This document shows, in pieces, positions 12,049 through 50,467 of a stretch of DNA of 64,000 nucleotides. This DNA comes from an uncultured Acidobacteriota bacterium (lineage in GTDB: Bacteria > Acidobacteriota > Thermoanaerobaculia > UBA5066). Location of the stretch: assembly GCA_963779415.1 (NCBI GenBank), contig CAVZYA010000001.1, positions 516,519 to 580,518 on the forward strand, in the 5' to 3' direction. A model generated the notes under the pieces. It did no database searches. It worked only from the letters and a program-made list of their open reading frames with translations, and was not told where the DNA came from. Numbering within the stretch: the first letter of the stretch is position 1; each line of letters starts with the position of its first letter. Both the position numbers and the translations under genes were made by a program.

Positions 12049-12291
12049 ATGACAGAACACGACAAGCCGAATGAAGAGGGCTACACGGCTCCGGCGTACG
12101 TCGACCCGGCGATGGGCGACAGCCCCCCCGTCGGAGGCCTGATTGACAACGAGGCCGTCTGCCGGGACTGCATGACCGCCGCCGAGGAAGTCAGCATGCG
12201 GCGCGGGTTTGTCGACCCCGTCTCCGAGCAGCAGGCCAAGGCGAAGGGGACCGTCTGCGCCCGGTGCGGCAAGAAACTCGTCGCCGCGTAG
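12049..12291 (+). CDS. Small zinc-ribbon-like protein (two CxxC knuckles)
   Basis: ORF 11995..12291 trimmed to ATG 12049, which has GGAAGGGAGAA just upstream. 80 aa with CRDC-x29-CARC. Confidence 0.55.
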   Translation: MTEHDKPNEEGYTAPAYVDPAMGDSPPVGGLIDNEAVCRDCMTAAEEVSMRRGFVDPVSEQQAKAKGTVCARCGKKLVAA

Positions 12292-25877: not shown

Positions 25878-26807
25878 TCAGTGCCCTCCCCCGTACGTCA
25901 GCATGACGTCCGGCTTCAGAAGAAGGCCGAGAAGCATCTTCACCATCACGGCCAGAACGATGACGGACATGAGGATCTTGAGCTGATCGGCCTGCAGCCG
26001 CTTGCTGAAGCGGGCGCCGACCTGGGCCCCGATGACCGAGCCGATCAGCAGTATCAGCGCCAGCACGACGTCCACGTTGTGGTTCACCGCGGCCTGGAGA
26101 ATCGTCACGTTGATGCAGGTGGCGAGGATCTGGAAAAGGCTCGTCCCCACGACCACGTGCATCGGCATCCGGAGGAGGTAGACCATCACCGGGACCATGA
26201 TGAAGCCCCCTCCGACCCCCATCACGGCGGCGAGCGCGCCGACCACCACCCCGAAGAAGAGCGGGACGAGCGCCGAGAAAGTGACGTTCGAGCGCGCGAA
26301 GTGCATCTTCATGGGAAGGGCCTCGACGAGGCGAGCGAGCGGCGACCGACGCCGTTCCGCGCCCTGCGGAGTCGGACGGCGCCCCCCGCGAAGCCCCTGA
26401 AGGCTCTCGAAGAACATGTAGCTGCCGACGCCGCCGAGCATCAGGACGTACGTCGCCGTGATCACGAAACCCGCCTCGCCGGCGCTCCGGAGAAGCTTGA
26501 TCAAAACGACGCCGAGCGACCCGCCGACGATGCCGCCGACGAGGAGCAGTCCCCCCATCCTGAAGTCGACCGACCCGGCCCGAGCGTGCGCATACGTCCC
26601 CGAGGCCGAGGCCGCCACGATCTGGTTGGAGTCCGAGGCGGCCGCGATCGTGGCGGGAACGCCGATCATCATCAGGAGGGGGGTCATCAGGAACCCGCCG
26701 CCCACCCCGAAGAGGCCCGAGAGGAAGCCGACGAGCCCTCCCAGCCCGAGGAGAAGGAAGACGTTCACCGCGTTGCCGGCGATCGGCAGATAGACGGAGA
26801 AGCTCAT
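25878..26807 (-). CDS. Sulfite exporter TauE/SafE family permease
   Basis: 309 aa, polytopic. Carries the repeated motif GFLSGLFGVGGGFLMTPLL / AAVMGVGGGFIMVPVM. Confidence 0.88.
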   Translation of the reverse strand: MSFSVYLPIAGNAVNVFLLLGLGGLVGFLSGLFGVGGGFLMTPLLMMIGVPATIAAASDSNQIVAASASGTYAHARAGSVDFRMGGLLLVGGIVGGSLGVVLIKLLRSAGEAGFVITATYVLMLGGVGSYMFFESLQGLRGGRRPTPQGAERRRSPLARLVEALPMKMHFARSNVTFSALVPLFFGVVVGALAAVMGVGGGFIMVPVMVYLLRMPMHVVVGTSLFQILATCINVTILQAAVNHNVDVVLALILLIGSVIGAQVGARFSKRLQADQLKILMSVIVLAVMVKMLLGLLLKPDVMLTYGGGH

Positions 26808-28527: not shown

Positions 28528-29376
28528 ATGGTGCTGCAGGCCGTCGCGTCGGGAGTGGCGCTCGGTCTGATCTATGCCGGCGTCGGGGCCGGTCTCTCCC
28601 TGATCCTCGCGACCGGTCGGCTGACGAACCTCGCGCACGGAGAGTTCGTCCTCGCCGGCGGCTACATCCTTTACGCCCTCTGCCATGGTATCGGGTGGCC
28701 CTGGCCGGCCGCTCTCGCCGTGGCGGCTCTCGGCGGCGCCCTCCTGGGCGGGGCTCTTCCCCCCTTCGTCCGACGGCTTCCAAGGCGGGAGGTGGACGGT
28801 CTCGCTTTTACCCTCGGCGTGGCTTTCATCCTCCAGAACCTCCTTCTTCTCGGGGCCACCGCGACGTACCGTGTGATTCCCGGAGGTTACTGGCTCCGGA
28901 CAGTCCCCTTCGGGCCGGTGATTCTGAGCCGGGTCTCTCTCGCGGCCGCGGGGGCGGCCGCGGCCGCACTCGTCGGACTCGACCTCTGGCTCCGCTTCAG
29001 CTGGACCGGATCGGGCCTCCGGGCCGTCAGTCAGTCCCGGCCGGCGGCCGCCAGTCTCGGGATCTCCCCCGCCCGGATGGAGCGGATTGCCTTTCTCGCC
29101 GGTGGCGCGACCGCGGCGGCTGCCGGAGGACTTGTTCTTCTGACCCGATTCCTGACGCCGGGAGAAGGTCCCGCCTGGACGCTCGTGGCTCTTGCGGTCG
29201 CTTTCCTCGGCGGCCGGCCGGCCGCAGGGGCGCTCATGGCGGCCGGAGTCGGGCTCGGCGTCGCGGAGTCCCTCGCCACGGTTCTCGCGGGAGGAGCGTG
29301 GCGGGAGGTCGTGGTGAGCGCGTCGGTCCTCCTCTGGCTTCTCGTCCGCGGGAGAACTCTCCTCACCGATGCGTGA
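28528..29376 (+). CDS. Branched-chain amino acid ABC transporter permease (LivH-like)
   Basis: From ORF 26830..29376. The start is ATG 28528, or GTG 28519. N-terminus MVLQAVASGVALGLIYAGVGAGLSLILATGRLTNLAHGEF. Confidence 0.85.
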   Translation: MVLQAVASGVALGLIYAGVGAGLSLILATGRLTNLAHGEFVLAGGYILYALCHGIGWPWPAALAVAALGGALLGGALPPFVRRLPRREVDGLAFTLGVAFILQNLLLLGATATYRVIPGGYWLRTVPFGPVILSRVSLAAAGAAAAALVGLDLWLRFSWTGSGLRAVSQSRPAAASLGISPARMERIAFLAGGATAAAAGGLVLLTRFLTPGEGPAWTLVALAVAFLGGRPAAGALMAAGVGLGVAESLATVLAGGAWREVVVSASVLLWLLVRGRTLLTDA

Positions 29377-30991
29377 GGGGACGCGCTTCTTCGTCCTCTG
29401 GGCGGTCGTTTTCTCGGCCGCAGGCATCGTCGCCGCGTCGACGGGCCGGTACGGCCTCAACGTCGTCGCCTTCGGATTCCTCTACGCCGTTCTCGCCACG
29501 AGCTGGAGCTGGCTGCGGGCGGCTGGGCTTCTTTCGCTCGGGCAGGCGGCCTTCTTCGGGGCCGGAGCGCTGACGCAGGCCTGGCTGGTCACTGCGGAAC
29601 GGATCTCCCCGTGGCTCGCCCTCTGCGCGAGTGCCGCCGCCGGCGCTCTCGCCGCGCTCCCCCTGATCCCGGCTCTTCGCCTGAGGCCGGCAAGCTTCGG
29701 CCTCGCGACACTCTCCTATGCCCTTCTCCTGAGGGGTCTCGCGGGGGGCGTCCTCGCTTTCGGCATGGAGGGATTCCTTCTTCCGAAGGTGCCGGGCTTC
29801 GAGGGGGCGGCGCCCGCGGCCGTGGCGACGCTTGGAGTGCTGGCCCTCGCCTCGAGCCTCGGTTACGAGGCGTTCCTCCGGCGGCCGGGGGGCCGGGCCG
29901 CGGCCGCCATCCGCCAGTCCCCGGCGACGACCTCGAGCCTCGGCATCGACCTCGTCGGAGAGCGCTGGCGTCCGCTGGTCCTGAGCGCCGCCGCCACCGG
30001 ACTCTCGGGAGCCCTTTACGCACACTTGACCGGGAGCGTCGAGACGGCCGTCGTCTTCTCACCCACCTTCTCGATTCTGCCGCTCGTTTTCGGAATGCTC
30101 GGGGGCGCCCTCCACCCGCTGGGAGGAATCCTCGGAACGCTCCTCCTCTACCCGTTCGACGAAATGCTCCTCAGGCAAGCCCTCCCCCAGGCTCATCTGC
30201 TGGCCTACGGGCTCATTCTCTGCGGTCTGTTGATGGTGAGGCCCGAGGGGATCCTCCGACAGAGGGTTCCGGCGGTCCCGCCGCAGACGACACCGAGGCG
30301 CCGACGACAGGAGCCCTTCGCTCTGGCCGTCCAGGACGTGACCGTCCGCCGCGGAGGGATCCCCGTCCTCAGGAACGTCAGCTTCACGGTCGAGCCGGGA
30401 GAGATCCTCCGGGTGGTCGGGTCCAACGGGGCCGGCAAGACCTCGCTGCTGCTGGCCATCGCTGGAGGAATTCCGATCGCAAGAGGAGCCATCCTCTTCG
30501 GCGGAGCGCCGTCTCCCCGGGGTGCCGCCGCACGGGCGCGGCGCGGCGTGGGCCGGTCGTTCCAGGCTCCCCGCCCCTTTCCGGAGTGGACGGTTCGAGA
30601 GAACGTGGCGCTCGCCGCCGAGCGAGGCGGAACCCGGGTCGACGTGGACCGCCTCCTCTCGGAGCTTCGGCTCGCCGCCCTGGAGGACCGCCCCGCCGGC
30701 CAGTTGAGCCTCGGAGAGGGAAAGCGACTGGAATTCGCGAGGGTTCTCGCGGCGGATCCGGCGCTCCTCCTCCTCGACGAGCCCCTGGCGGGCCTCAGTC
30801 CCGAGGCGGCCGAGCACGTCTCGGGCCTCATCGATCGGGCGCGGCGGCAGGGCGCCGCCGTCGTCTGGGTCGAGCACGGTCCGGCCGCGGGGAAGCTCGC
30901 GGACCGCCTTATCGTCCTCGAGAGGGGGCAGATCCGATTCCGCGGATCGGTCGCGGAATGGGAAGCCGCACGTCTGGAGCCTTCGTCGTGA
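29369..30991 (+). CDS. Fused LivM-like permease / LivG-like ABC ATPase
   Basis: One 540-aa ORF. The N-terminal ~300 aa are polytopic (..LSLGQAAFFGAGA..), followed by GEILRVVGSNGAGKTSLL, LSLGEGKRL and LLLLDEPLAGL. Confidence 0.85.
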   Translation: MREGTRFFVLWAVVFSAAGIVAASTGRYGLNVVAFGFLYAVLATSWSWLRAAGLLSLGQAAFFGAGALTQAWLVTAERISPWLALCASAAAGALAALPLIPALRLRPASFGLATLSYALLLRGLAGGVLAFGMEGFLLPKVPGFEGAAPAAVATLGVLALASSLGYEAFLRRPGGRAAAAIRQSPATTSSLGIDLVGERWRPLVLSAAATGLSGALYAHLTGSVETAVVFSPTFSILPLVFGMLGGALHPLGGILGTLLLYPFDEMLLRQALPQAHLLAYGLILCGLLMVRPEGILRQRVPAVPPQTTPRRRRQEPFALAVQDVTVRRGGIPVLRNVSFTVEPGEILRVVGSNGAGKTSLLLAIAGGIPIARGAILFGGAPSPRGAAARARRGVGRSFQAPRPFPEWTVRENVALAAERGGTRVDVDRLLSELRLAALEDRPAGQLSLGEGKRLEFARVLAADPALLLLDEPLAGLSPEAAEHVSGLIDRARRQGAAVVWVEHGPAAGKLADRLIVLERGQIRFRGSVAEWEAARLEPSS

Positions 30992-37943: not shown

Positions 37944-39278
37944 CTACCGGAGCTGATAGCCTTTCATCTTCCGCCAGAGGGTATTGCGCGAGATGCCGAG
38001 TGTGGCCGCGGCCCGGCCCCGGTGGCCGCCGTGCCGCGCGATCGCGTCGCGGATGGTCTCCGCCTCGGCCTGCTCCAGGGGACTCGCGCCGGGGGGGGCC
38101 GCGATCGCCGGCGCGCCGGGGAGCGAGGCGATCTGGGAGGGGAGGTCGGAGACCTCGATGATCGAGCCGCCGCAGACCACGAAGGCGTGCTCGATGGCGT
38201 TTTCGAGCTCCCGCACGTTCCCGGGAAACGAATGGGACATGAGGCGCGCCATCGCCGTCACCGAGATACCCGAGATGCGCCTCCCCTGCGCGGCGTTGAA
38301 GCGCGCGATGAACCGCTCGACGAGGAGCGGGATGTCCTCTGGGCGGCTCCGGAGCGGCGGCAGGGTCAGCCGGACGATGTTCAGGCGGAAGTAGAGGTCC
38401 TGGCGGAAGCGCCGGTTCATCACCTCCGCCGCGAGGTCGCGGTTGGTCGCGGCAATGATCCGTACGTCGGCCTTCGCCGGCTTGACGGCGCCGAGCGGCG
38501 TGTACTCCCGCTCCTGAAGGACCCGCAGAAGCTTGACCTGTATGGCCGGCGACAGCTCGCCGACCTCGTCGAGGAGGAGCGTCCCTCCCTGCGCGAGGGC
38601 GAAACGGCCGGGCTTGTCCTTCTTGGCGTCGGTGAAGGCGCCGCGGACGTAGCCGAACAGCTCCGATTCCACGAGGGAGTCCGGGATGGCGCCGCAGTTG
38701 ACCGCGACGAAGGGCTTTCGGGAGCGCGCCCCGAGGTTGTGGATCGCCCTCGCGACGAGCTCCTTTCCGGTGCCGGGCTCCCCCTCGATCAGGACGGTCG
38801 CGTCGCTCCGGGCGATGAGCGGCAGCATGTCGCGCACATGACGCATCGCCGCGCTCTTGGAGATGACGTCATCCGACTTGTAGCTGGCTTTCAGCTGGCG
38901 ACGCAGCTCGGCGACCTCGGAGAGGTCGCGGAACATCTCGACCCCCCCGATCACCTGTCCGTCCTCGCCACGCAGCGCCGCCGTGCTGACGGCGATCGGA
39001 ACGGAGCGCCCCTCCTTCCGGAGGATCGAGACCTCGCTGTCGGCATGGCTCTGGCCGGCCCGCATGCTGTCGCGCAAGAGGCAGTTCCTCTCGCATCCGG
39101 TGCTCCGGAGCACATCGCCACAGAAGCGCCCCAGAACCTCTTCCCGGCCGTAGCCCGTGATCTCCTCCGCCGTCCGATTGAAGGCCGTGATCCGGCAGTC
39201 GCCGTCTACGGTGAAGATCGCGTGCGGGATGGAGTTGAAGATCAGGTTCGCGTACCTGATGACGAGAGCCCGCTGCAT
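37944..39278 (-). CDS. Sigma-54-dependent transcriptional activator (PAS + AAA+ + Fis-type HTH; no receiver domain)
   Basis: Motifs GEPGTGKELVARAIH, GAFTDA (a GAFTGA variant), LLLDEVGEL and a C-terminal ..AAATLGISRNTLWRKMK. The N-terminal PAS carries a C-x8-C-x3-C motif. Confidence 0.92.
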   Translation of the reverse strand: MQRALVIRYANLIFNSIPHAIFTVDGDCRITAFNRTAEEITGYGREEVLGRFCGDVLRSTGCERNCLLRDSMRAGQSHADSEVSILRKEGRSVPIAVSTAALRGEDGQVIGGVEMFRDLSEVAELRRQLKASYKSDDVISKSAAMRHVRDMLPLIARSDATVLIEGEPGTGKELVARAIHNLGARSRKPFVAVNCGAIPDSLVESELFGYVRGAFTDAKKDKPGRFALAQGGTLLLDEVGELSPAIQVKLLRVLQEREYTPLGAVKPAKADVRIIAATNRDLAAEVMNRRFRQDLYFRLNIVRLTLPPLRSRPEDIPLLVERFIARFNAAQGRRISGISVTAMARLMSHSFPGNVRELENAIEHAFVVCGGSIIEVSDLPSQIASLPGAPAIAAPPGASPLEQAEAETIRDAIARHGGHRGRAAATLGISRNTLWRKMKGYQLR

Positions 39279-39430: not shown

Positions 39431-39446
39431 TGGCACGTTGATTGCC
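39431..39446 (+). promoter_or_regulatory. Sigma-54 (-24/-12) promoter
   Basis: TGGCAC-gttga-TTGC matches TGGCAC-N5-TTGC exactly. It lies 43 bp upstream of ATG 39489 and is divergent from a sigma-54 activator gene. Confidence 0.7.
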
Positions 39447-39488: not shown

Positions 39489-40880
39489 ATGGCGCTAACA
39501 ACTTCCTATTACATGGAGGCGGTCGACACGAAGAACCTCCCGGAGAGGTTCCTCGAGGCATTCGCCGCGATTCTTTCTCACTCGAACTACGCCGCCGTTC
39601 TCGACCTCTATGCCCGGATGAGCACGCGATGCGGACGCTGCGCCGCGAGCTGTCCGGTCTACGAGGCCTCCTGCGATCCGCGGGACATTCCGTGCAAGAG
39701 GTCGGAGCTGCTCCTCGACGTCTTCACCCGCTACTTCACCCCTCTCGGCGCCCTCAAGGCGCGCTTCGGCACTCCCTTCACCCTCACGGAGGAGCACATC
39801 AACAGGCTGGCAGAGGATCTCTACCGCTGCACCGCCTGCCGCCGGTGCAAGCTCGAGTGCCCGCTGGGGATCGACCACGCGATGATCACCCACCTCGGCC
39901 GCTGGGTCCTTGCGGAGGTCGGCATCATTCCGAAGGCGCTCAAGGTGGCGGTGCGGGAGCAACTGGACGGAAAGACGCACAACACGTCGGCGATTCCCGA
40001 GGCGGCGCTGCGCGACACGTGCGAGTTCCTCACGGACGACTGCAAGGACACCTGGGGGATGAAGATCGAGTTCCCGATCGACCGGGAGGGGTCGGAATAC
40101 GTCTTCTTCCCGGCGGTATCCGATTACCTCCTGGAGCCCGACACGCTGACGGGAAACTCCGCGGTCCTCACCGCGGCCGGCGCCTCCTGGACCATCGGCT
40201 CGCGTTACTTCGACGGGATCAACTACGGCCTCTTCTACTCCGACCGGATGCTCGACCGGATCCTGCAGCAGGAGGTCGCGGAGGTCCGCCGCCTCGGGGC
40301 ACGCAAGATCCTGATCGGAGAGTGCGGGCACGCCTCGCGCTCGGCCAAGTTCTTCGTCCGGACTTTCGGCGGCGGCCGGAACGCTCCCGAGGTGGTCAAC
40401 ATCATGGAGTACACGCTGAGGGCGCTTCGGGAGGGGAAGCTGGCCCTTAAGGCCGGTTCGATCGGCGAGCGCGTGACGTATCACGATCCCTGCAACATCG
40501 CCCGATCGGGCTGGGTTGTAGAACAGCCACGCGAGATCCTTCGCGCCATCTGCTCGGACTTCGTCGAGATGACGCCGCACGGCCGCGAGAACTACTGCTG
40601 CGGGGGCGGAAGCGGGACCGTCTCCATCGACGAGATCCGCTCCTTCCGGACGCTCGTCGGCGGCAAGACCAAGGCGGAACAGATCCGCCGCACCGGCGCC
40701 ACCGTCCTGGTCGCCCCCTGCGCCAACTGCAAGAAGCAGCTCCGCGAGGTCTGCGAAGACCACGGCCTCAAGGACGTCCGGGTCGTCGGGTTGCACGATC
40801 TCCTCTTGCCGGCCCTCCAACCGCCTGCGGCCATGCGCGTCGAAAAACCGGCGGCCGACGAAGCCGCGAAGGGGGCGTGA
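39489..40880 (+). CDS. HdrD/DsrK/HmeD-like Fe-S oxidoreductase (two 4Fe-4S motifs + CCG domains)
   Basis: ORF 39438..40880 trimmed to ATG 39489 (GGAGGG 5 nt upstream). The track start lies inside the sigma-54 promoter. Motifs CGRCAASCPVY, CTACRRCKLECP, YHDPCNIARS, NYCCGGGSG and APCANC. Confidence 0.88.
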   Translation: MALTTSYYMEAVDTKNLPERFLEAFAAILSHSNYAAVLDLYARMSTRCGRCAASCPVYEASCDPRDIPCKRSELLLDVFTRYFTPLGALKARFGTPFTLTEEHINRLAEDLYRCTACRRCKLECPLGIDHAMITHLGRWVLAEVGIIPKALKVAVREQLDGKTHNTSAIPEAALRDTCEFLTDDCKDTWGMKIEFPIDREGSEYVFFPAVSDYLLEPDTLTGNSAVLTAAGASWTIGSRYFDGINYGLFYSDRMLDRILQQEVAEVRRLGARKILIGECGHASRSAKFFVRTFGGGRNAPEVVNIMEYTLRALREGKLALKAGSIGERVTYHDPCNIARSGWVVEQPREILRAICSDFVEMTPHGRENYCCGGGSGTVSIDEIRSFRTLVGGKTKAEQIRRTGATVLVAPCANCKKQLREVCEDHGLKDVRVVGLHDLLLPALQPPAAMRVEKPAADEAAKGA

Positions 40881-40883
40881 CGC

Positions 40884-41585
40884 GTGGACGCCTGGATCGC
40901 CCTCGCGCGGGGCCCCCTCTTTCGCATCTCCCTCGCGGTCTGCGTGCTCGGCCTTCTCTACCGTGTCGGCGTCGCCTGCTACTCCCTCCTGCGCGCGTGG
41001 CAGAGAGCGGGAGACCGGCTCCTGCCGCTCTCCGCGATCCGCCGCGCGACCCTGGAGTGGTTGGTGCCACGCCGTCTCCTCAAGGCGAGGCCGCTCTACT
41101 CGATCGCCTCGTTCGCGTTTCACGTCGGCATCATCGTCGTGCCGCTCTTCCTCGCCGGACACGTCCTCCTCTGGCAGCGCGACCTGCCGGTCGCCTGGCT
41201 TGTGCTCCCCGCCTTCTGGGCCGACCTCCTGACCCTCCTCGCCACGGCGGCGCTCTTCGGTGTCCTCGTCGCCCGGGCCGTGACGAAGGAGAGCCGCTTC
41301 CTGACGCAGACGCAGGACGTCGTGGTGCTCCTCCTCCTCGCAGGGGTGCTCGTCGCCGGCTTTCTCGCATCCCATCCGGGCCTCGCTCCGTTCGACGCAC
41401 GGGCGCTGCTCCTAGCCCACGTCCTCCTCGGAGATCTGGTGCTGATCCTGACGCCCTTGACCAAGATCGTGCACTGCGTCCTCTTCCCATTCATGCAGCT
41501 CGCCGGAGAGATCGGCTGGCACTTCCCCGCCGAGAGCGGCCGCCACGTGGCGCTCGCCCTCGGCAAGGAGGGTGAGCGGATATGA
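40884..41585 (+). CDS. Integral membrane protein, DsrM/HmeC/NarI-like (putative dihaem b quinol-interacting subunit)
   Basis: 233 aa with about 5 TM segments and conserved-looking His residues in the helices (FAFHVGIIVVPLFLAGHVLLW; LLLAHVLLGD; KIVHCVLFP). GTG start. Confidence 0.7.
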   Translation: MDAWIALARGPLFRISLAVCVLGLLYRVGVACYSLLRAWQRAGDRLLPLSAIRRATLEWLVPRRLLKARPLYSIASFAFHVGIIVVPLFLAGHVLLWQRDLPVAWLVLPAFWADLLTLLATAALFGVLVARAVTKESRFLTQTQDVVVLLLLAGVLVAGFLASHPGLAPFDARALLLAHVLLGDLVLILTPLTKIVHCVLFPFMQLAGEIGWHFPAESGRHVALALGKEGERI

Positions 41586-42391
41586 GCGCCTGGGGCATCC
41601 TGACCGACGTTACGAAGTGCATCGGCTGCGAGGAGTGCGTCGCCGCTTGCAAGCGGACGAACGCGACCGGAGAGGACGAGCCGTGGAGCTGGCAGGGCTC
41701 ACCCGGGGATCTCTCGTCGACGCGGTGGACGACGATCGTCTCCGCGCCGCGCGGACGCTCCGTCCGCGTCCACTGTCGCCACTGCCTCGAGCCGGCCTGT
41801 GCCTCGGCCTGTCCGGTGGGAGCGCTCCGCCGGACGAAGGAAGGCGCGGTCGCTTACGACGCGGACATCTGCATGGGCTGCCGCTACTGCATGATCGCCT
41901 GCCCGTTCAAGATGACCCGCTACGAGTGGGAGTCGGCCACCCCCCGGGTCCGCAAGTGCATCCTCTGCTACGACCGGATCCGTAAAGGCGAGATCAGGGA
42001 GCCGGCCTGTACGGCCGCCTGCCCGACGAAGGCGACGATCTTCGGCGACCGGGACACCCTCCTCGCCGAAGCCCGCCGCCGCATCGCGGAGGAGCCGGGC
42101 CGATACGTCCACCACATCTGGGGCGAGCACGAAGTGGGAGGGACCTCAGTCCTCTACCTTTCCGACGTCAACCTCTCCACGGCTGGCTGGCCCTCTTCGC
42201 TGCGCGACACTTCGTATCCGGCGCTCACGCATCCGGCCATGCACGCCGTCCCTCCCGCGTTTCTCGGCGTGGGCGCCGTGATGTTCGGCCTCTCGTGGGT
42301 GATCGGCCGCCGGGAGCGCCTCGCCCGGGAGGGGGATCCGGAAACTCCGCCGCACGAGAAAGGCAACACGCCTCCGAAGGCTACGCCATGA
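41582..42391 (+). CDS. 4Fe-4S ferredoxin-type subunit (DsrO/HmeA/HybA-like) with a C-terminal TM anchor
   Basis: Motifs CIGCEECVAAC, CRHCLEPACASAC, CMGCRYCMIAC and CILCYDR..C..C. The C-terminal helix is VPPAFLGVGAVMFGLSWVIG. I see no twin-arginine signal at the N-terminus. Confidence 0.85.
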   Translation: MSAWGILTDVTKCIGCEECVAACKRTNATGEDEPWSWQGSPGDLSSTRWTTIVSAPRGRSVRVHCRHCLEPACASACPVGALRRTKEGAVAYDADICMGCRYCMIACPFKMTRYEWESATPRVRKCILCYDRIRKGEIREPACTAACPTKATIFGDRDTLLAEARRRIAEEPGRYVHHIWGEHEVGGTSVLYLSDVNLSTAGWPSSLRDTSYPALTHPAMHAVPPAFLGVGAVMFGLSWVIGRRERLAREGDPETPPHEKGNTPPKATP

Positions 42392-44314
42392 GCACGCCCG
42401 TCAACATCCGCCTGGCCACGACCAAGGCCGTCCTCTGGCTCCTCGTCGGCGTGGCGACCGCCGTGGCGGCGGTGCGCTACGCGTACGGCCTCGGCCTGAC
42501 AACGGCCCTCACGGACCTCACCCCCTGGGGTCTCTGGATCGGACTCGACGTCATGGCCGGTGTGGCGCTCGCCGCCGGGGGCTTCGTCATCGCGGCCACC
42601 GTGTACGTCTTTCACCGCGAGCGCTACCACGCTCTCGTCCGGCCCGCCGTCCTGACGGCTTTCCTCGGTTACGTGGCGGTCGTCCTCGGACTGCTCGTCG
42701 ACCTCGGCCGGCCCTGGAACATCTGGCGAATGACCGTCCGCTGGCAGCCAACCTCCGCCCTCTTCGAGGTCGGCTGGTGCGTGATGCTCTACCTGACCGT
42801 CCTGACCCTCGAGTTCGCCCCGGTCGTCTTCGAGGGCTTGCGCTGGAATCGAGCTTTCGCTCTGCTCAAGCGCGCGACCCTCCCCCTCGTCATCGTCGGC
42901 ATCGCTCTCTCCACGCTGCACCAGTCCTCCCTCGGGACGCTCCTCGTCATCGCACCCGAACGCCTCCACCCGCTCTGGTACTCGCCCATCCTGCCTCTGC
43001 TTTTCCTCGTCTCGGCCATCGGCCTCGGGCTCGCCACCGTCGTCGTGGAGGATGTAACGAGCACGTGGCTCTACCGGCGGCAGCCGGAGTGGGACCTCCT
43101 GCCGGCCCTGACGCGCGCCTCGGCTCTGGTTCTTCTGCTCTACCTCGCGCTCCGTGTCGGCGACCTGGCTTTTCGCGGGACGCTGGCACGTGTCCTGGAA
43201 GGCTCGTGGTGGTCGGCGCTCTTCGTCGTCGAGCTGCTGGTGAGCGTCGTCGTCCCCGTCCTGATCTTCCTCCTCCCCTCGACGCGCAAGAGCCCCCGCG
43301 CCCTCTCCGTGGGCGCTTTCCTCGTCATTTCGGGATTCGTCTTCAACCGGGCCATGGTGGGAGGGATCGCCCAGCTCGCCCGGACCCGGGACTTCTACGT
43401 CCCGGCGGCCACCGAGCTCGCCATCAGCCTCGGGATCATCGCGGTGATGGCGCTGGTCTTCATGTTCTTCGTGGAGCACCTCGGAGTTTGGGAGACGCCG
43501 CCAGCGGCACCCGACCACTTCCGGCCGGCCGTGACCGACCGGGCCTCGGCCGTGCGCCTCCGCGGGCCCTGGTTCGGAAGCGTGCAACGCTCGGGTCTCG
43601 CGTGGGTCGTCGGCGTCCTCCTCGGACTGGGGATCGTCTCGGCCGAAGTCCGTCACCGCGGCATGGTCCGGGCGACTCCCGTGGCTCCGCCCCGGACGGT
43701 CACCGTGGACCGGTCGGATCGCCCCGGGGGGCTTCTGCATCAGCTCCGGCTTCTCCCGGCGACGGCCACCGGAGAGACGACCGAGAACGCGCTCCTCCTC
43801 TCGGCGGCCGGGAGCGGGCGGTACGTCCTTTTCGAGCATGACCAGCACCAGAAGAGGCTCGGCGGCGTCTCTTCGTGCCGCCGATGCCATCACCTCAACC
43901 TGCCTCTCGACAAGGCGACGCCCTGCGCGTCGTGTCACCGCGACATGTACGCGGCGACCGACATTTTCGGGCACGAGCGGCATGTCGTTTCCCTCGGCCG
44001 CAACGCCTCCTGCTCGAGGTGCCACGCTCCCGGAAGGGCGCAGACGAGGGAGGCGTCGACCCCCTGTGCGTCGTGCCATGCCGCGGAAGGCGGCCCGCCC
44101 GTCGGCCTTGGCGAGAGAAAGGATGCCGCCGGTATCGCGCCCGGCTATCGGCGAGTCCCTCCACTCCCTCTGCATCTCGTGCCATCGGTCCGAGGAGGCG
44201 CGGACCGGACGAAAGCCGTATCTCTCGCGCTGTCCGGCCTGTCATCGCGGGGCGGCCGCTGGCGACGAGAACCTCCGGGTCCGCGAAGGCGCGGTCCTCC
44301 TGGCGAGAAGATGA
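42388..44314 (+). CDS. NrfD/DsrP/HmeB-like polytopic membrane subunit fused to a multihaem (6x CxxCH) cytochrome c domain; one apparent +1 frameshift near 44138
   Basis: ATG 42388 (ATGA overlap). NrfD-like TM region (..LTPWGLWIGLDVMAGVALAAGGF..), then CRRCH, CASCH, CSRCH and CASCH in frame 1. CISCH and CPACH follow in the next frame, which ends at TGA 44312-44314 and overlaps the next ATG (ATGA). Confidence 0.8.
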
Positions 44315-44737
44315 TGCGCGAAATGCCGGCTCACCCACGCCCGCGGGTGGCGGTGGTCGATGACGAGCCAGACGTCCTGACGTTCGTGCGGCTCGCTCTC
44401 GACGACCGGGGGTTCGACGTCCTGACCCTCGACCGCGTCGCCGGAGCGCTTCCCGCGCCTCCACGCCTTCGCCCCGGACGCGGTCTGCCTCGACCTCTTG
44501 ATGCCGGAGCGGACGGGACTCTCGCTCCTCGTCGAGATCCGGAAGGATCCCGATCTGGCGAAGGTCCCGGTGCTCATCCTCTCGGCACTCAACGCCCGGG
44601 AGGAGCTCCTCGCGACCCTCCGCCGCGAGGGACTCGGCCCGGAGCCTGCCGCCTTCGTCGAGAAGCCGCTGGATATGGAGTCGCTGGTCCGGGCCTTGCG
44701 CGAGTGCCTGGGGATCGCGGTAGGAGGTGGGCCATGA
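44311..44737 (+). pseudogene. Single-domain response regulator, interrupted by one apparent +1 frameshift (~44443); may be an assembly error
   Basis: Frame 1 reads MMREMPAHPRPRVAVVDDEPDVLTFVRLALDDRGFDVLTLDR... The next frame reads ..FAPDAVCLDLLMPERTGLSLLVEIRKDPDLAKVPVLILSAL..FVEKPL. Confidence 0.7.
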
Positions 44738-46608
44738 CGACGCTTGCTCGCCGGCAGGCCCTCTTGCGCGCCGGGCTGTTCGACGAACATTCCGAGCGAA
44801 ATCGCGATCATCGACCGGACGCTGCGGCTCGTCGACAACAACCGCGCCTGCGTCGAGCAGCACGGCGAGGGGCTCGGAGCAGCCGTGCTATCGAGTCCTC
44901 AGGGGCCGGAACACGCCCTGCAGGGACTGCCCGGCGCCCCGAGTCTTCGCCGAGGGCCGGCCCTCTGTGCTGGAGACGACCGGGCGCGACAAACAGGCCC
45001 GGGCGTTCCCACCTCCTGCTGCAGCTCATCCCGCTCCGCGGGCGCGAAAGGCGACGTGACCCACCTCGCGGAGCTCGCCATCGACCTGACGGCATCGAGA
45101 CAGCTCCAGAGCGAATACCAGACGCTCTTCGAGAAAGTGCCGTGCTACGTCTGCGTTCTGAACCGGGACTTCCGGGTCGTCAAGGCGAACGAGCGGTTCC
45201 GTGAGGTCTTCGGGGTCGCGGCCGGAGAGCCCTGCCACATGGTCTACAAGCGGCGGCCGATGAAATGCACGAACTGCGCCGCGGAGAAGGTCTTTGCCGA
45301 CGGCGTCCTGCGCACGGCGCACCATGCCGGCGTCACCCGTGAGGGGAAGGCCGCCTACTACATCGTGAGCACCGCGCCTCTGCTCCACTCGGGAAACGAG
45401 GTCACACACGTCATCCAGATGGCCCTGGACGTGACCGAGCTGCGCGCCTTGAGGCAGGAGCTGGATCAGGCGAGCCGCCTTCGCGAGGCGCTCGTGGAGA
45501 CCTCGCCGGAGGCCATCGTCGTCCTGGACAACGCCGGGAAGGTCCTGATCTTCAACCGCGCCGCCGAGGCGCTCTGGGGCGTGGCGCGCCAACGCGTGGT
45601 CGGCCACGTCTGGCGCTCCGCGTTCCTGGAGGCCTCGGTGGTCGATCTCTATCGCGGCCGTCAGGAGCGCCTCGAGCTCGAGGAGACGCTGGCCGCGCCC
45701 CGGCAGGGCGAGCCGATCCCGGTGCTCGCGTCGGGCGTGACGTCTGCGGGATGAGGACGGGGGCGTCGCTGGGGCGGCCCTGCTGCTGCACGACCTTCGG
45801 GCGCGAAAGCAGCTCGAGAAGGAGAAGCTGGAGGCCGAGCGCCTGGCCGCCGTGGGCCAGACGGTCGCCGGGCTGGCCCACGGCATCAAGAACATTCTCA
45901 CCGGTCTCGAGGGCGGAATGTACGTGACCTCCACGGGCCTCGAACGGCACGACGACGCCCGCATCCGCCAGGGCTGGGGGATGCTGGAGCGCAACATCGG
46001 CAGGATCTCCACGCCTCGCCCGCAACCTGCTGGAGTTCTCGCGCGGCGAGGAGCCGCACCCGGAGATGGTGGATCCGGCGGCCCTCGTGGCCGAGGTCGC
46101 CGACCTCTATCGCGACAGCGCCCGCCAGCACGGCGTCGAGATCGTGGTCGAGGCGAACGGGCCCGTGCGGCCCGCCTCGCTCGACCACAAGGGCGTGGCG
46201 AGCTGCCTGGAGAACCTGGTCTCCAACGCCCTCGACGCCTGCCTCGTCAGCCGCCGCCCCTCGCCCCGGATCACGCTTCGCGCCATGGATCACGGTGATA
46301 ACCTCGAGTTCGAAGTCGCCGACACCGGGTGCGGCATGGACTACGAGGTCAAGCAGAAGGTCTTCACGAGCTTCTTCTCCACGAAGGGCGCCGGGGGGAC
46401 GGGGATCGGCCTGCTCCTGACGCGGAAGATCGTCCAGCAGCACGGCGGCGCCATCACGTTCGAGACGACGCCGGAGACGGGGACCACGTTCCGGCTGACG
46501 TTCCCCCGGGAGCGCCTGCCACGACCGGCGGCGGGGGCAACGGGGCCCCGGAAGGCAGTTCCCGCCGAGAGCGGCGCCGGGGCGGTCCCCGAGGCCAGGA
46601 AGGAGTGA
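44734..46608 (+). pseudogene. PAS-PAS-PAS histidine kinase, interrupted by about six apparent +1 frameshifts; may be an assembly error
   Basis: The pieces lie in three frames: MTTLARRQALLRAGLFD / IPSEIAIIDRTLRLVDNN.. / QPCYRVLRGRNTPCRDC.. / ..HLLLQLIPLRG / KGDVTHLAEL..PCHMVYKRRPMKCTNC.. / LRDEDGGVAGAALLLHD..VGQTVAGLAHGIKN (H-box) / RLARNLLEFSRG..DTGCGM..GGTGIGL (HATPase). Confidence 0.75.
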
Positions 46609-46611
46609 TCG

Positions 46612-47159
46612 ATGCGTCAGGCAACCGAGGTGACGGTACTGGTGGTGGACGACGACCCGGACGTCACGACCTTCCTCGGGACGATCCTCGGCGACGCGGG
46701 GATGCATGTGGTCACCGCGCACGACGGCCAGGAGGCTCTGGACCGGCTGCACGAGTTCACGCCGGACCTCATCTCCCTCGACCTCGTGATGCCGGGCAAG
46801 TCCGGCGTGCGGCTCCTGCACGACCTGCGCAAGCATCCGAGCTGGCAGCGGATCCCGGTGATCATCGTCACCGGTCACGCGCGGGACGAAAAGATACGGA
46901 GGGATCTCGACCAGGTGCTGGCGGAGAGCGCCATCTCGGGTCCGTCCGTCTATCTGGAGAAGCCGGTCACGGCGCGGGCCTATCTGGAGACAGGTCTGCC
47001 GGGTCGTCGGTGTGACGCCGCCCGGGCGGGGGACCGGCCCCCGGGCCGGACCGGCTGAAACACGAACTCGCCGAGCTGCTCGCCGGGGCCGACGAGGAGA
47101 GCCTGGCGCGGGCGATCGAGACTCTCAAGGCCGGGCGGCCGGTCAAGACGCCAGCCTAG
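46612..47159 (+). pseudogene. Response regulator receiver protein; the C-terminal tail appears frameshifted twice (~46992, ~47028)
   Basis: The receiver is intact: VLVVDDDPDV..LISLDLVMPGKSG..VIIVTGH..YLEKPV. A plausible tail, PDRLKHELAELLAGADEESLARAIETLKAGRPVKTPA*, lies two frames over and ends at TAG 47157-47159. Confidence 0.65.
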
Positions 47160-47179
47160 GCGCGGAAGGGGAAGACGTC

Positions 47180-47576
47180 ATGGAAAAGCCGGGACGGATC
47201 CTCGTCATCGACGACGATGCGGACATCGTCGCCTACCTCGGAACGATCCTTCGGGACCACGGCTACGAAGTCCTCTCCGCCACCGACGGCGCTGCGGGTC
47301 TCGAGCTGGCCCGCCGCGAGCGCCCCGACCTGATCTGCCTGGACATCGCCATGCCGCCGCCGACGGGCGTCCGCGTCTACCGCGATCTGCGGGACGATCC
47401 CGGCCCTGAAGGGGATCCCGGTGGTGATGGTGACCGGCGTCATGCCGCAGTTCAAGGAGTTCATCCATCACCGCAAGAAGGTCCCGCCCCCGGACGGCTA
47501 CATCCAGAAGCCGTTCGAACCCGCGGACGTGATCGCCACTCTCGGAAAGCTCCTGGCGCCGGCCGCGCGCGCCTGA
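47180..47576 (+). pseudogene. Single-domain response regulator, one apparent +1 frameshift at ~47402
   Basis: MEKPGRILVIDDDADIV..LICLDIAMPPPTGVRVYRDLRDDP, then in the next frame ALKGIPVVMVTGV..GYIQKPFEPADVIATLGKLL*, ending at TGA 47574-47576. Confidence 0.7.
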
Positions 47577-47579
47577 CGG

Positions 47580-49025
47580 TTACGTCGCCAGGTGGATCCG
47601 CTTCGTGTAGGCCATCTCCTCGATCTTGTCGGTCGAGCCGTAGAGGCCGCTGTCGCGGATGCCGCCGATGGGTAGCGTGTAGTCGCTGTAGAGAGGCCCC
47701 TCGTTGATCATGACCCGCCCGGCCGCGAGGTCCCGTCCGATCGCCGCCGCCTGCTCCCGCTCCCCGAAGATGCTGGCTCCGAGGCCGTAGGTCCCGTCGT
47801 TGGCGAGTGCCACCGCCTCGTCGACCGTATCGAAGACGACGAAGGAGCGGACGGGCGCGAAGGCCTCCTCGGTCCAGAGGAAGGGCTTCTCGTCATCGGG
47901 TTTTCCGAGAAGCTCCCCTTTCTCGAACTCGATCAGCGTCGGGTAGAAGAAGGGTCCGTCGGCCTTCCCTCCGATCAGGAGGCGGCCCCCCCGTTCCAGC
48001 GCCTCCTGGACCTGGTACGTCGCGATGTCCAGGCTCTCGTGCTTCCCGATCGGGCCGATGTCCGTCTCCTCGAGTCGGGGATCGCCCATCTTGAGCCGGC
48101 CGATTCCCTCGATGAGGCGCTCGCGGAACGCCGAGGCGACGGGGCGCTGGACGAGGAACCGCTTGGCGGCGATGCAGAGCTGGCCGCTGTGCGCAAACCC
48201 GCCGAGGAGGCCGGCGGCCGCGGCCTGTGGCAGGTCGGCGCTCGCGAGGACGATGAACGGGTCGTTTCCCGCGAGTTCGGGAACGTACTTCTTCATCCGG
48301 CCGCCGACGTGGAGCATGCACTCGCCGAGCGTCTTCTTCGTCCGTTCGAGATAAGACCCCATCTTGATCAGGTTGTCCTTCCCGACGGGGCTGGACGCAT
48401 AGTGGACGAGGACGTCGACCTCGGGGTTCTCGATGAACTCCCACGCGGCGTCCTCGCCGGGGCAAGTGGAGACCTGCGCGCCGTCCGCCGGGCAGCCCGC
48501 CTCGACGACGATCTGGACGATTCGCTGGCAGATCAGGGGAACGAGGCTGGAGGGCTTCTCGATGACGGCGTTCCCGGCCCCGAGCGCGGCCAGCATCGTG
48601 TAGAGCGGGACGACGAGGGGCGTGTTCCGCGGCGGGAGGACGCCAACGACGCCGTACGGCTCGCGGTAGAGGATGTTCCTTCCCTTGGCCGCGTGAAGCT
48701 CCCTCGGTTTGAGCAGCTCGAGACGCCGCTCGAGGTTCGCGGCGCTGGCGATGGCCCGCTCCATCTCCCACCGCGCGAATTTTCGCGGCTGGCCCCCTTC
48801 ACGAACCATCAGCTCCTCGAACTCGGCCCGCCTCGCCTCGAGCCGCGCCGCCACGCGGCGCCCCAGCCCGGCCCGCTCCTCGAAGGTCGTCTTTCGGACG
48901 GATTCCTTGGCCAGAAACGCCTTGTGGATCCTGGCGCGCAGGTCCCGGCGCGTGTCCACCGCCACCTCGCCGATCACCTCGCCCGAGAACTTGTCGCGGA
49001 TCTCCGTCCTTCTGAGGCTGAGCAT
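47580..49025 (-). CDS. Aldehyde dehydrogenase family protein
   Basis: 481 aa with ..LPPRNTPLVVP.., ELAGNDPFIV (catalytic Glu region) and GQLCIAAKRFLV (catalytic Cys). Confidence 0.9.
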   Translation of the reverse strand: MLSLRRTEIRDKFSGEVIGEVAVDTRRDLRARIHKAFLAKESVRKTTFEERAGLGRRVAARLEARRAEFEELMVREGGQPRKFARWEMERAIASAANLERRLELLKPRELHAAKGRNILYREPYGVVGVLPPRNTPLVVPLYTMLAALGAGNAVIEKPSSLVPLICQRIVQIVVEAGCPADGAQVSTCPGEDAAWEFIENPEVDVLVHYASSPVGKDNLIKMGSYLERTKKTLGECMLHVGGRMKKYVPELAGNDPFIVLASADLPQAAAAGLLGGFAHSGQLCIAAKRFLVQRPVASAFRERLIEGIGRLKMGDPRLEETDIGPIGKHESLDIATYQVQEALERGGRLLIGGKADGPFFYPTLIEFEKGELLGKPDDEKPFLWTEEAFAPVRSFVVFDTVDEAVALANDGTYGLGASIFGEREQAAAIGRDLAAGRVMINEGPLYSDYTLPIGGIRDSGLYGSTDKIEEMAYTKRIHLAT

Positions 49026-49072
49026 CTCTTCGCGATGCTAGCACCGGCCTCCGACGACGATTTCCTCGGAAC

Positions 49073-49088
49073 TGTGAAAGGTTTCACG
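49073..49088. promoter_or_regulatory. CRP/FNR-type operator candidate 1
   Basis: TGTGA-AAGGTT-TCACG matches 9 of 10 positions of TGTGA-N6-TCACA, with a core palindrome GTGAAAGGTTTCAC. It sits in the divergent ALDH/OFA intergenic region. Confidence 0.4.
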
Positions 49089-49154
49089 GATAAACGGGGA
49101 GCTTCGGCCTATCCATGGAGGGTCAGGCGGGGAGAGTGCGGGACGCTGCGGTTT

Positions 49155-49170
49155 GGTGAGACGTTTCACA
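49155..49170. promoter_or_regulatory. CRP/FNR-type operator candidate 2
   Basis: GGTGA-GACGTT-TCACA matches 9 of 10 positions of TGTGA-N6-TCACA. It lies 82 bp from candidate 1 and 38 bp upstream of ATG 49208. Confidence 0.4.
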
Positions 49171-49207
49171 ACAACAACCGTGCAACCGGCATAGTGGAGA
49201 GAAAACC

Positions 49208-50467
49208 ATGGAAGAGAAAACGCTCAGTCGCTCCTGGCGCATCGTCGGGGGCCTCTTCATGAACCTGGCGCTCGGCTCTCTGTATGCCTGGAGCGTCTTC
49301 GTCGCGCCCCTGGAGAAGGAATTCGGGTGGAAGCGGGCGGACACGTCCCTCGTCTTCACCTGGGCCGTCGTCGTCTTCGCGATCGCCTTCATTCTCGCGG
49401 GGCGGCTGCAGGACAAGCTCGGGCCCTTCAGGATCTCTCTCACCGGCTGCATCCTCCTGACGGCGGGTTTCATCCTCTGCATGTGGACCAGCAGCCTGAC
49501 CTATTTGATCATCTGCTTCGGCGTCCTCGTCGGCATCGGGAATGGCTTCGGCTACGCGACGCCGATTCCCGTCATGGCGAAGTGGTTCCCGGACAAGCGA
49601 GGCCTCGCCGTCGGACTGGCCGTGGCCGGCTACGGGGGCGGCTCGGCCATCTTCGGACCGCTCGCGAATCTCTGGCTCATCCCGGCGTTCGGGTGGCGCA
49701 GCACCTTCGTCATCCTCGGAGCGATCTTCTTCGTCATGACGCTCATCGGCTCTTTCCTGCTGAAGAACCCTCCGGTGGGCTACCGGCCGCCGGGATGGAC
49801 GCCCGCCGCCGCGGCCAGGACGACGGCCACGGCCTACGAGTTCTCTCCCGGTGAGATGTGGCGCACCCCGGCGGCGTATTTCATGTGGATCGCGTACGCG
49901 CTGGGCACGTCGGCCGGTCTCATGGTCATAAGCCAGCTCGTCCCCTTCGCCAACAGCATGAAAATCCCGAGCGAGGCGCTGGCGGCGATCACGCTCGTCA
50001 TCGGCGCGGCGGGGAACGCCTCGGGCCGGATCTTCTCGGGGTGGATGTCCGACGCACTCGGACGCCTCAATGTCCTGCGCCTCATGATCGGCATCTCCGC
50101 GGTCGCCATGCCGGTCCTCTACCTTACCGGCGGCAACGTGGGGCTGCTCTACGTCATGGTCTTCGTCGTCTACTGGTGCTACGGCACGCAGCTTTCGGTG
50201 AACGCGTCCACGACGTCCGATTTCTGGGGGACGAAGAACGCCGGGATCAACTACGGCATCCTGTTCACCGCCTGGGGCGTGGCCGGCATCCTGGGACCCC
50301 GGATCGGCGGCGCGTTGTTCGACAAGTACAAGAACTACGAAGCGGCTTTCTTCGTCGCGGCGGGCCTTGCCGTCGTGGCCCTCCTCTTCGAGCTTCTGGC
50401 GAGACGCCCCGCCGCGCCGGTGCAGACCGGCGTGGAGGCGCGACTCGCCGCCGGGGTCAAGGCCTGA
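49208..50467 (+). CDS. MFS transporter, oxalate/formate antiporter (OFA) family (second copy)
   Basis: 419 aa. WRIVGGLFMNLALGSLYAWSVF and AGRLQDKLGPF parallel the transporter at 6119-7345. Confidence 0.88.
   Translation: MEEKTLSRSWRIVGGLFMNLALGSLYAWSVFVAPLEKEFGWKRADTSLVFTWAVVVFAIAFILAGRLQDKLGPFRISLTGCILLTAGFILCMWTSSLTYLIICFGVLVGIGNGFGYATPIPVMAKWFPDKRGLAVGLAVAGYGGGSAIFGPLANLWLIPAFGWRSTFVILGAIFFVMTLIGSFLLKNPPVGYRPPGWTPAAAARTTATAYEFSPGEMWRTPAAYFMWIAYALGTSAGLMVISQLVPFANSMKIPSEALAAITLVIGAAGNASGRIFSGWMSDALGRLNVLRLMIGISAVAMPVLYLTGGNVGLLYVMVFVVYWCYGTQLSVNASTTSDFWGTKNAGINYGILFTAWGVAGILGPRIGGALFDKYKNYEAAFFVAAGLAVVALLFELLARRPAAPVQTGVEARLAAGVKA

Follow-up and report, generated by a model that had tools for sequence, protein, structure and literature searches.

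Much of anaerobic energy conservation depends on modular membrane complexes that combine NrfD, NrfC, cytochrome b, and HdrD-like building blocks. Work on Hmc, Tmc, and DsrMKJOP has to date centered on classical sulfate reducers. Here, we compare these systems with a four-gene locus from an uncultured Acidobacteriota bacterium of the UBA5066 lineage. The locus lies in a 64,000-nucleotide stretch of DNA (hereafter, the window; assembly GCA_963779415.1, contig CAVZYA010000001.1, positions 516,519 to 580,518). It encodes, in order, a DsrK/HdrD-like iron-sulfur (Fe-S) protein (K'), a membrane cytochrome b (M'), a tail-anchored ferredoxin (O'), and an NrfD-like protein fused to a multihaem cytochrome c (P'::J'). 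Judged by its sequence, the locus is one copy of a widespread, undescribed family of four-gene respiratory membrane complexes related to Hmc and DsrMKJOP. A literature search retrieved no published description of the fusion or of the four-gene module, although an earlier mention in Duarte et al. 2021 (BBA Bioenergetics) is possible. A study of a sulfate-reducing acidobacterium assigned one NrfD homologue to "HydB" (PMC10564751); this homologue may be P'::J'.

HmcABCDEF of Desulfovibrio vulgaris contains the same four module types as K', M', O', and P'::J'. Its cytochrome, HmcA, is a separate periplasmic protein with 16 haems, whereas the module carries six haems fused to the C-terminus of NrfD through an extra transmembrane (TM) helix, and the HmcA model reaches only 23 to 34 bits against the module. 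Hmc also includes HmcD, a small hydrophobic subunit encoded between the NrfD-like and cytochrome b subunits, for which the abutting or overlapping genes of the module leave no room, and the Hmc gene order A-B-C-D-E-F becomes F-E-B-C::A here. K' is nearer to DsrK than to HmcF. HmcB is a tail-anchored protein with a signal for twin-arginine translocation (Tat) and depends on that pathway (PMC10924467); O' has no such signal, though the tail anchor and 16 Cys are kept. DsrMKJOP (Hme in Archaeoglobus) shares with the module a pair of quinone-type membrane subunits, an Fe-S protein and a cytochrome c in the periplasm, and a cytoplasmic catalytic subunit with a single CCG domain. In contrast, DsrJ is a separate trihaem protein with one His/Cys-ligated haem, where the module has a fused hexahaem domain with six conserved distal His, and DsrO is exported by a Tat signal of its own that O' lacks.

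More distant parallels exist for individual features. Alternative complex III (ActABCDEF) shares the 10-TM NrfD fold, a periplasmic Fe-S subunit, and a multihaem cytochrome, but has neither a cytochrome b nor a CCG subunit; ActB carries a molybdopterin-like domain and a Tat signal, and the cytochromes are separate proteins. Geobacter CbcL likewise fuses a membrane quinone domain to a periplasmic multihaem domain, although its membrane domain is b-type rather than NrfD-like. Cbc4/CbcSTU and Cbc6/CbcMNOPQR, which we set against the module by description, also combine quinone-interacting modules with multihaem cytochromes c, but the cytochrome is a separate protein. In CbcSTU, an anchored tetrahaem cytochrome is paired with an Fe-S protein (PMC13591261).

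Profile scores place M', O', and P' nearest to HmcE, HmcB/HybA, and HmcC/HybB, respectively, and only K' nearest to DsrK. Against NCBIfam models, K' scored 283 bits for DsrK (equivalog cut-off, 400), 192 for HmcF (750), and 189 for TmcB; M' scored 122 for HmcE (275) and 116 for TmcC; O' scored 229 for HmcB (420), 202 for HybA, and 104 for DsrO (200); and P' scored 294 for HybB (450), 290 for HmcC (550), 101 for QrcD, and 31 for DsrP (350). The original prediction, which was made by a model from the sequence alone, had described the locus as Hme/DsrMKJOP-like. That likeness holds for K' but gives way to Hmc- and Hyb-type relatives for the other three subunits. Its gene order and domain identities agree with the NCBIfam and Pfam profiles, and the three coupled junctions that it reported fit exact stop and start coordinates. 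The K' stop codon (TGA, 40878-40880) is followed 3 nt later by the GTG of M' at 40884, the M' stop codon (TGA, 41583-41585) overlaps the O' ATG at 41582, and the O' stop codon (TGA, 42389-42391) overlaps the P' ATG at 42388 (ATGA).

The fused protein opens with a 10-helix membrane domain of the NrfD/PsrC type (Pfam NrfD, PF03916, 86.6 bits; cut-off, 25.8), like HybB, HmcC, NhcC, and ActC, in which two helices flank an 8-TM core. Beyond it, the predicted extra TM helix is present (Table 1). Positive charges lie at the N-terminus of P' and in its even-numbered loops. The loop ahead of TM helix 11 is net positive, and this helix therefore runs from inside to outside. Given that c-type cytochromes must be periplasmic, the ten-plus-one helices, the charge pattern, and the C-terminal cytochrome together place the N-terminus of P' inside and, in the periplasm, the face to which the Fe-S subunit docks in all solved relatives. 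As a reference we used protein P0001 (642 aa), the orthologue at locus L001. Its AlphaFold2 model has a mean predicted local distance difference test score (pLDDT) of 67, with a good membrane part and a poor haem region, and displays ten helices, a cytoplasmic loop, helix 11 (residues 398-427), a small beta-rich linker, and the haem region in that order. In Foldseek, the model best matched ActC and ActF, two subunits of alternative complex III (E = 1.6e-8); HybB and NhcC are 10-helix proteins equivalent to ActC (Calisto and Pereira, PMC8076601). A PDB sequence search with the fusion returned no match. The linker (residues 432-482 of P0001; window, ~43680-43830) is rich in beta strands, occupies the span between TM helix 11 and the first haem motif with a pLDDT of 56 to 69, and matched no family.

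Four haem-binding motifs follow in the NrfD frame (CRRCH at 43876, CASCH at 43924, CSRCH at 44011, and CASCH at 44065). Together they make up an entire tetrahaem domain of class III (c3-type), which matches Pfam Cytochrom_CIII (PF02085) over residues 478-564 and profile positions 19-101 of 101 (E = 8e-9, 36.2 bits; cut-off, 22.9). Six CxxCH motifs had been predicted in one open reading frame (ORF) at about 43790-44314; in the window, however, the last two lie in the +1 frame, which ends at a TGA codon (44312-44314). From 44171 to this stop, identity with the L001 orthologue (residues 586-642) is 79%. The prediction had joined the two frames without comment. All six motifs occupy a single ORF in P0001, which is 86% identical. 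The proposed NrfD–cytochrome fusion is thus genuine in the family, as intact orthologues demonstrate, while the ORF of the window is frameshifted. The stop or start between NrfD and cytochrome that the prediction had named as grounds for its rejection is not what occurs, since the break falls inside the cytochrome domain. A programmed frameshift was considered for this domain and is ruled out by the orthologues, which are intact single ORFs. Across 25 to 35 aligned homologues, the six CxxCH motifs and six further His are invariant, far beyond chance, and the family alignment of the haem domain showed no additional conserved Cys. The six extra His are consistent with bis-His haem ligation. The C-terminal part of P'::J' is thus predicted to be a hexahaem, bis-His, c3-like periplasmic cytochrome that replaces a separate DsrJ or HmcA.

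The NrfD frame and the +1 frame were joined across the shift and used as the query. Homologues of the joined fusion fall into more than 120 full-length protein clusters of 640 to 690 aa. Scanning one genome per species gave at least 595 relatives, from which the best 80 were fetched and analyzed; the number of loci in a given test is 78, 80, 81, or 82, as stated. The nearest locus (GCA_037443065.1) shares 86% DNA identity with the window, and L001 aligns to the window at 86% identity over 6.9 kb. The fusion extends through the haem domain in all of the best 80 of the at least 595 species genomes, and K'-M'-O'-P'::J' are encoded in this order on one strand in every fetched locus where the contig permits. 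The fused ORF has exactly six CxxCH motifs in 77 of 82 loci; in four others it carries five along with a CxxxxCH variant, and in a single locus seven. Carriers span more than 10 phyla, and the labels of their metagenome-assembled genomes include Acidobacteriota, Planctomycetota, Zixibacteria, Ignavibacteria/Bacteroidota, Kryptoniota, Latescibacterota, Gemmatimonadota, Myxococcota, "Deltaproteobacteria," and Deferrimicrobium, among others. Source annotations call the fused protein a "Ni/Fe-hydrogenase cytochrome b subunit" or an NrfD/PsrC anchor.

K', which matches Pfam CCG (PF02754, 49.8 bits; cut-off, 20.6) and Fer4_8, has the CCG Cys and the two ferredoxin-type clusters of the HdrD/DsrK family. 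Among 68 orthologues, its invariant Cys are C48/51/55/69, C114/117/120/124, and C279/335/370/371/411/414; K' has two [4Fe-4S] motifs and, like DsrK, a single complete CCG (non-cubane cluster) site. In M', H80, H93, H179, and H197 are conserved in 100% of 74 orthologues, and these four His would suffice for two haems b. A second DsrK-like gene (548 aa; 337 bits for DsrK, below the cut-off) lies ~3.5 kb downstream of the module in some loci of Ignavibacteria/Bacteroidota (L038, 12416-14059; also L039 and L043).

O' matches Pfam Fer4_11, and its best match in a PDB sequence search was FdnH. All 16 Cys are invariant in 79 orthologues, and the C-terminal TM helix is followed by R243/R244 (100% and 96% conserved). 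Alignments to the HmcB, HybA, and DsrO models begin at profile positions 36-43, so that O' lacks the Tat leader of these families. The original prediction had noted this absence and had allowed for a missed upstream leader. No signal peptide was found on O' in 78 of 78 loci, where the start lies 10 to 13 residues ahead of the first Cys and the N-terminal consensus is M..AILTD[VT]TKC. In the window, a TGA codon (41573-41575) stands in frame three codons ahead of the O' ATG, an AAGGAGG ribosome-binding site occupies 41565-41571, and no twin-arginine (RR) motif with a hydrophobic stretch occurs ahead of O' in any frame. An upstream Tat leader is therefore ruled out by the in-frame stop, by the M' gene on the upstream DNA, and by the likeness of the 78 loci. 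O' lacks a Tat signal throughout the family, and not through a mis-called start, and the topology puzzle that the prediction raised is as real as it had supposed. DsrO paralogues on the same contigs carry Tat signals (RRxFLK-type); given that they retain classical signals in the same genomes, the loss is specific to O'.

The orientation of O' can be approached through its C-terminal tail. O' has 4.5 K/R in the 15 residues after the TM helix versus 1.7 in the 15 before it. Escherichia coli HybA has an N-terminal classical Tat signal plus a ...VLVRRNTK tail that matches O'; the tail is thus ancestral and predicts an N-out orientation. The conserved RR after the helix was also considered as a novel C-terminal Tat-like signal and discounted, since Tat-exported HybA ends in the same way. 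The sole signal-less HybA-like variant described so far, from the Palmer laboratory, is encoded just downstream of a periplasmic, Tat-targeted [FeFe] hydrogenase, with which it is thought to hitchhike (PMC10924467). Like O', that HybA-like/HybB-like pair is tail-anchored and signal-less and keeps its C-terminal tail; unlike O', it has an obvious partner in the adjacent Tat-bearing hydrogenase, whereas the module has none, either within the operon or among conserved neighbors. When the ORFs flanking 81 loci were clustered all against all, no conserved Tat-bearing gene emerged that could act as a hitchhiking partner; only regulators (the PAS histidine kinase, response regulators, and the sigma-54 activator) are conserved beside the module. 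O' thus offers a test case for Tat biology: a protein predicted to be periplasmic and cofactor-bearing, with no signal peptide or obvious hitchhiking partner.

The module is genomically linked to Dsr metabolism in ~20% of loci. In 16 of 81 loci, dsr genes occur within 7 kb. In ten loci, dsrA and dsrB, dsrD- or dsrN-like genes, or dsrC fall in this range (L008, L010, L017, L033, L034, L035, L047, L053, L071, and L082; dsrC in two), and in L035 both dsrA (586 bits) and dsrB (514 bits) exceed their cut-offs. Bona fide dsrK/O/P genes lie near the module in seven loci (L025, L026, L033, L041, L059, L079, and L080), directly upstream where examined; the neighbors in L025 pass the cut-offs for DsrK (635 bits), DsrO (296), and DsrP (425). 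Because canonical dsrKOP sits alongside in these seven loci, the module and DsrMKJOP are coexisting paralogues, and the idea that it is the organism's own, or a rearranged, DsrMKJOP is ruled out. The prediction had cast the locus as a rearranged quinone-to-cytoplasmic-thiol/disulfide electron module. The module is of the Hmc/DsrMKJOP type and connects the quinone pool and periplasm with a cytoplasmic CCG-type (thiol/disulfide) catalytic subunit, and that part of the proposal stands; the rearrangement does not. In the sulfite- and sulfate-reducing lineages discovered of late, the module may supply a part of electron flow that has been missing. The ten neighboring genes in the window scanned against Pfam showed no link to Dsr, only ordinary functions. 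An anion (sulfite/sulfonate) exporter of the TauE/SafE family is encoded ~13 kb upstream (25878-26807, minus strand) and is the sole other hint of sulfur metabolism in the scanned part.

We favor, with confidence somewhat better than even, a sigma-54-controlled complex of the Hmc/DsrMKJOP type that passes electrons from menaquinol to a cytoplasmic thiol substrate, and we take the insertion in the window copy to be an error. By homology with DsrMKJOP and Hmc, menaquinol would be oxidized at a periplasm-facing site of P', and electrons would travel through the four clusters of O' to the six haems c, then to the two haems b of M', and finally to K'. On the cytoplasmic side, K' would hand the electrons to a thiol-based substrate; a DsrC-type trisulfide or disulfide is the likeliest, plausibly in genomes with dsr genes. 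Because protons would be released outside while electrons move inward, this transfer would be electrogenic. The exposed haems could also trade electrons with periplasmic cytochromes. A cryo-electron microscopy study of DsrMKJOP located quinol at DsrP and proposed a path from P through O, J, and M to K (bioRxiv 10.64898/2026.08.25.746951). Several observations weigh against this reading. All four subunits miss the curated Hmc and Dsr equivalog cut-offs, and the haem domain of the AlphaFold2 model has a pLDDT of 26 to 67 per 10-residue block, mostly below 50. O' has neither a Tat signal nor a conserved Tat-bearing partner, which, under the known rules of Fe-S protein export, conflicts with a periplasmic place for this subunit. 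About 80% of loci have no dsr gene within 7 kb, and the 64-kb window has no match to dsrA, dsrB, dsrC, or dsrN; a DsrC substrate may accordingly hold for only some lineages. If the insertion at 44148 were real, the window copy would yield no more than a tetrahaem protein that ends in nonsense sequence. Finally, the sequences show the anatomy of the complex, whereas the direction of electron flow, the substrate, the quinone type, and the export route of O' are inferred.

The same parts could also work in reverse, as proposed for Hmc and Qrc, with periplasmic donors feeding the hexahaem domain and electrons splitting to menaquinone at P' and to M'/K'. The donors would then be H2 or formate, by way of soluble cytochromes c, or extracellular donors. 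The nearness of M', O', and P' to HmcE, HmcB, and HmcC/HybB suits such a scheme, as does a solvent-exposed multihaem domain on which soluble cytochromes might dock; Hmc has been implicated in hydrogen-to-sulfate electron transfer (PMC10924467, citing Dolla 2000). Yet clustering of the flanking ORFs of 81 loci identified no hydrogenase or formate dehydrogenase gene conserved beside the module, and the DsrMKJOP structures favor an NrfD-like subunit that oxidizes quinol. The direction cannot be read from sequence alone, and we regard reverse flow, together with these donors, as unlikely. The absence of an export signal on O' invites two further explanations. O' might remain cytoplasmic, anchored by its tail with the N-terminus inside (N-in), and wire K' or cytoplasmic donors to the membrane, which would leave the fused cytochrome alone to serve the periplasmic quinol site. 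Such an arrangement would account for the absence of a signal peptide in every locus and of a Tat-bearing partner in the operon or among conserved neighbors, as well as for a loss confined to O' where paralogous DsrO in the same genomes keep their signals; cytoplasm-facing NrfCD-type modules do exist (SoeABC, PMC8076601). It is nonetheless hard to reconcile with a positive-inside bias and invariant RR that match Tat-exported HybA and predict N-out, with the 10+1 TM topology that puts the docking face of P' in the periplasm, or with the translational coupling of O' to P', as in every known NrfC/NrfD pair, and we consider it improbable. Alternatively, O', with neither a Tat signal of its own nor a co-encoded Tat-targeted partner, could reach the periplasmic face of P' by an unrecognized route of Fe-S protein export or assembly common to the many species that carry the module, and the complex may be an overlooked second DsrC-linked respiratory complex in newly found phyla with dsr genes. 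The route may involve an escort encoded elsewhere or targeting by the C-terminal tail or by the complex itself. We hold this combined proposal to be improbable.

The status of the window copy depends on the insertion within its cytochrome domain. A DNA alignment to L001 places the inserted base at ~44148, where tblastn moves from frame 1 to frame 2. Across the shift, the window reads APGYR and then ESLHSLCISCH in the new frame, against APGYRDSLH in the orthologues, as in APGYRDSLHALCISCH. Left unshifted, the NrfD frame meets no stop until 45204 (969 aa) and is nonsense after ~44150. Further single-base insertions relative to L001 occur at 44458, 44785, 44881, 45006, 45044, and 45742, and tblastn adds shifts at ~45940-46010 and ~47395, for a total of at least nine. 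Every event is a 1-nt insertion, the bases vary, most fall outside homopolymer runs, and no uncompensated deletions were seen. In contrast, 39489-44100 contains no frameshifting indel relative to L001, and the flanking genes (39489-44100 and 47580-50467) are intact. A scan of the whole window for frameshifts based on G+C content at third codon positions is dominated by noise outside 39-50 kb. The confinement of at least nine frame-breaking insertions to 44148-47400, between intact genes, could mean that the locus is a decaying pseudogene cluster in this organism, with real frameshifts and a functional complex no longer made. Bacterial gene decay is deletion-biased, however, and the corrected frames are free of in-frame stops and match orthologues at an amino-acid identity (77-93%) as high as that of intact K', M', O', and P'. 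We therefore judge decay to be unlikely. The run looks most likely to be local sequence error in a poor assembly stretch, and the insertion at 44148, the first of at least nine with no uncompensated deletions downstream, is most likely an error too. ORF-based annotation of 44.1-47.4 kb is unreliable because of the many single-base insertions.

Table 1. Features of the module and its regulatory surroundings, in window coordinates
Feature	Position	Strand	Description
PAS/sigma-54 activator gene	37944-39278	-	444 aa; divergent; beside module
Sigma-54 -24/-12 promoter, TGGCACGTTGATTGC	39431-39445	+	44 nt upstream of K' start
K'	39489-40880	+	463 aa; cytoplasmic DsrK/HdrD-like Fe-S protein; from ORF list and profiles
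M'	40884-41585	+	233 aa; HmcE/TmcC/NarI-like membrane cytochrome b; GTG start
O'	41582-42391	+	269 aa; tail-anchored 4x[4Fe-4S] ferredoxin, HmcB/HybA-like; no signal peptide
P' NrfD domain	42388-43560	+	NrfD/HmcC/HybB-like, quinone-interacting; 10 TM helices
TM helix 11, LAWVVGVLLGLGIVSA	43597-43644	+	Carries C-terminal domain to periplasmic side; AlphaFold2 helix 398-427
Haem motifs 1-4	43876-44079	+	NrfD frame; complete class III (c3-like) tetrahaem domain
One-base insertion (+1 frameshift)	44146-44153	+	Inside cytochrome domain; from three-frame translation, DNA alignment, and tblastn
Haem motifs 5-6 and true C-terminus	44171-44314	+	+1 frame; CISCH 44171-44185, CPACH 44231-44245
Response regulator	44311-44737	+	ATG at 44311 overlaps P' stop (ATGA); overlap shared with L001 and L002
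Cys-rich PAS histidine kinase	44734-46608	+	Broken by 1-nt insertions in the window
Response regulators 2 and 3	46612-47058 and ~47180-47570	+	Same downstream set

Regulatory genes flank the module on both sides. The divergent activator is 92% identical to its L001 orthologue over 443 aa (tblastn), and PAS, Sigma54_activat, and HTH_8 domains were seen in the L001 and L002 orthologues. The promoter motif TGGCAC-N5-TTGC is the sole match in the 64-kb window, with 0.01 expected by chance, and the identical motif lies upstream of K' in L001, L002, L011, L013, L028, and L053. K' itself has a GGAGGG ribosome-binding site and the same ATG start as in L001. At the acidobacterial locus L008, an exact TGGCAC-N5-TTGC motif (12099-12113) lies just upstream of dsrA, a hint of common sigma-54 control over dsrAB and the module at this locus. 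The four downstream regulatory genes, which carry many of the 1-nt insertions in the window, have intact orthologues (140, 600, 195, and 135 aa), and 53 of 81 loci encode a PAS histidine kinase downstream of the module. The kinase (also L002, 10378-12180, and L014, 9275-10771) has two PAS-like repeats and a conserved Cys pattern, C..VYK.R...C..C, that looks like a candidate metal- or redox-cofactor sensing site. At Ignavibacteria, Zixibacteria, and Bacteroidota loci, a NifX/NifB-C-terminal/MrpORP-like protein and a small DUF134-like protein flank the module instead of the sigma-54 activator; examples are L035 (9137-9878, minus strand) and 20 other loci upstream of K', such as L022 (3112-3939). 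Elsewhere in the window, an ORF at 29369-30991 combines two domains, a branched-chain amino-acid permease and an ABC ATPase, and the region around 28-32 kb has weak coding periodicity, 70% GC, and a strong negative AT skew. The permease–ATPase fusion could be natural or a further sequence problem.

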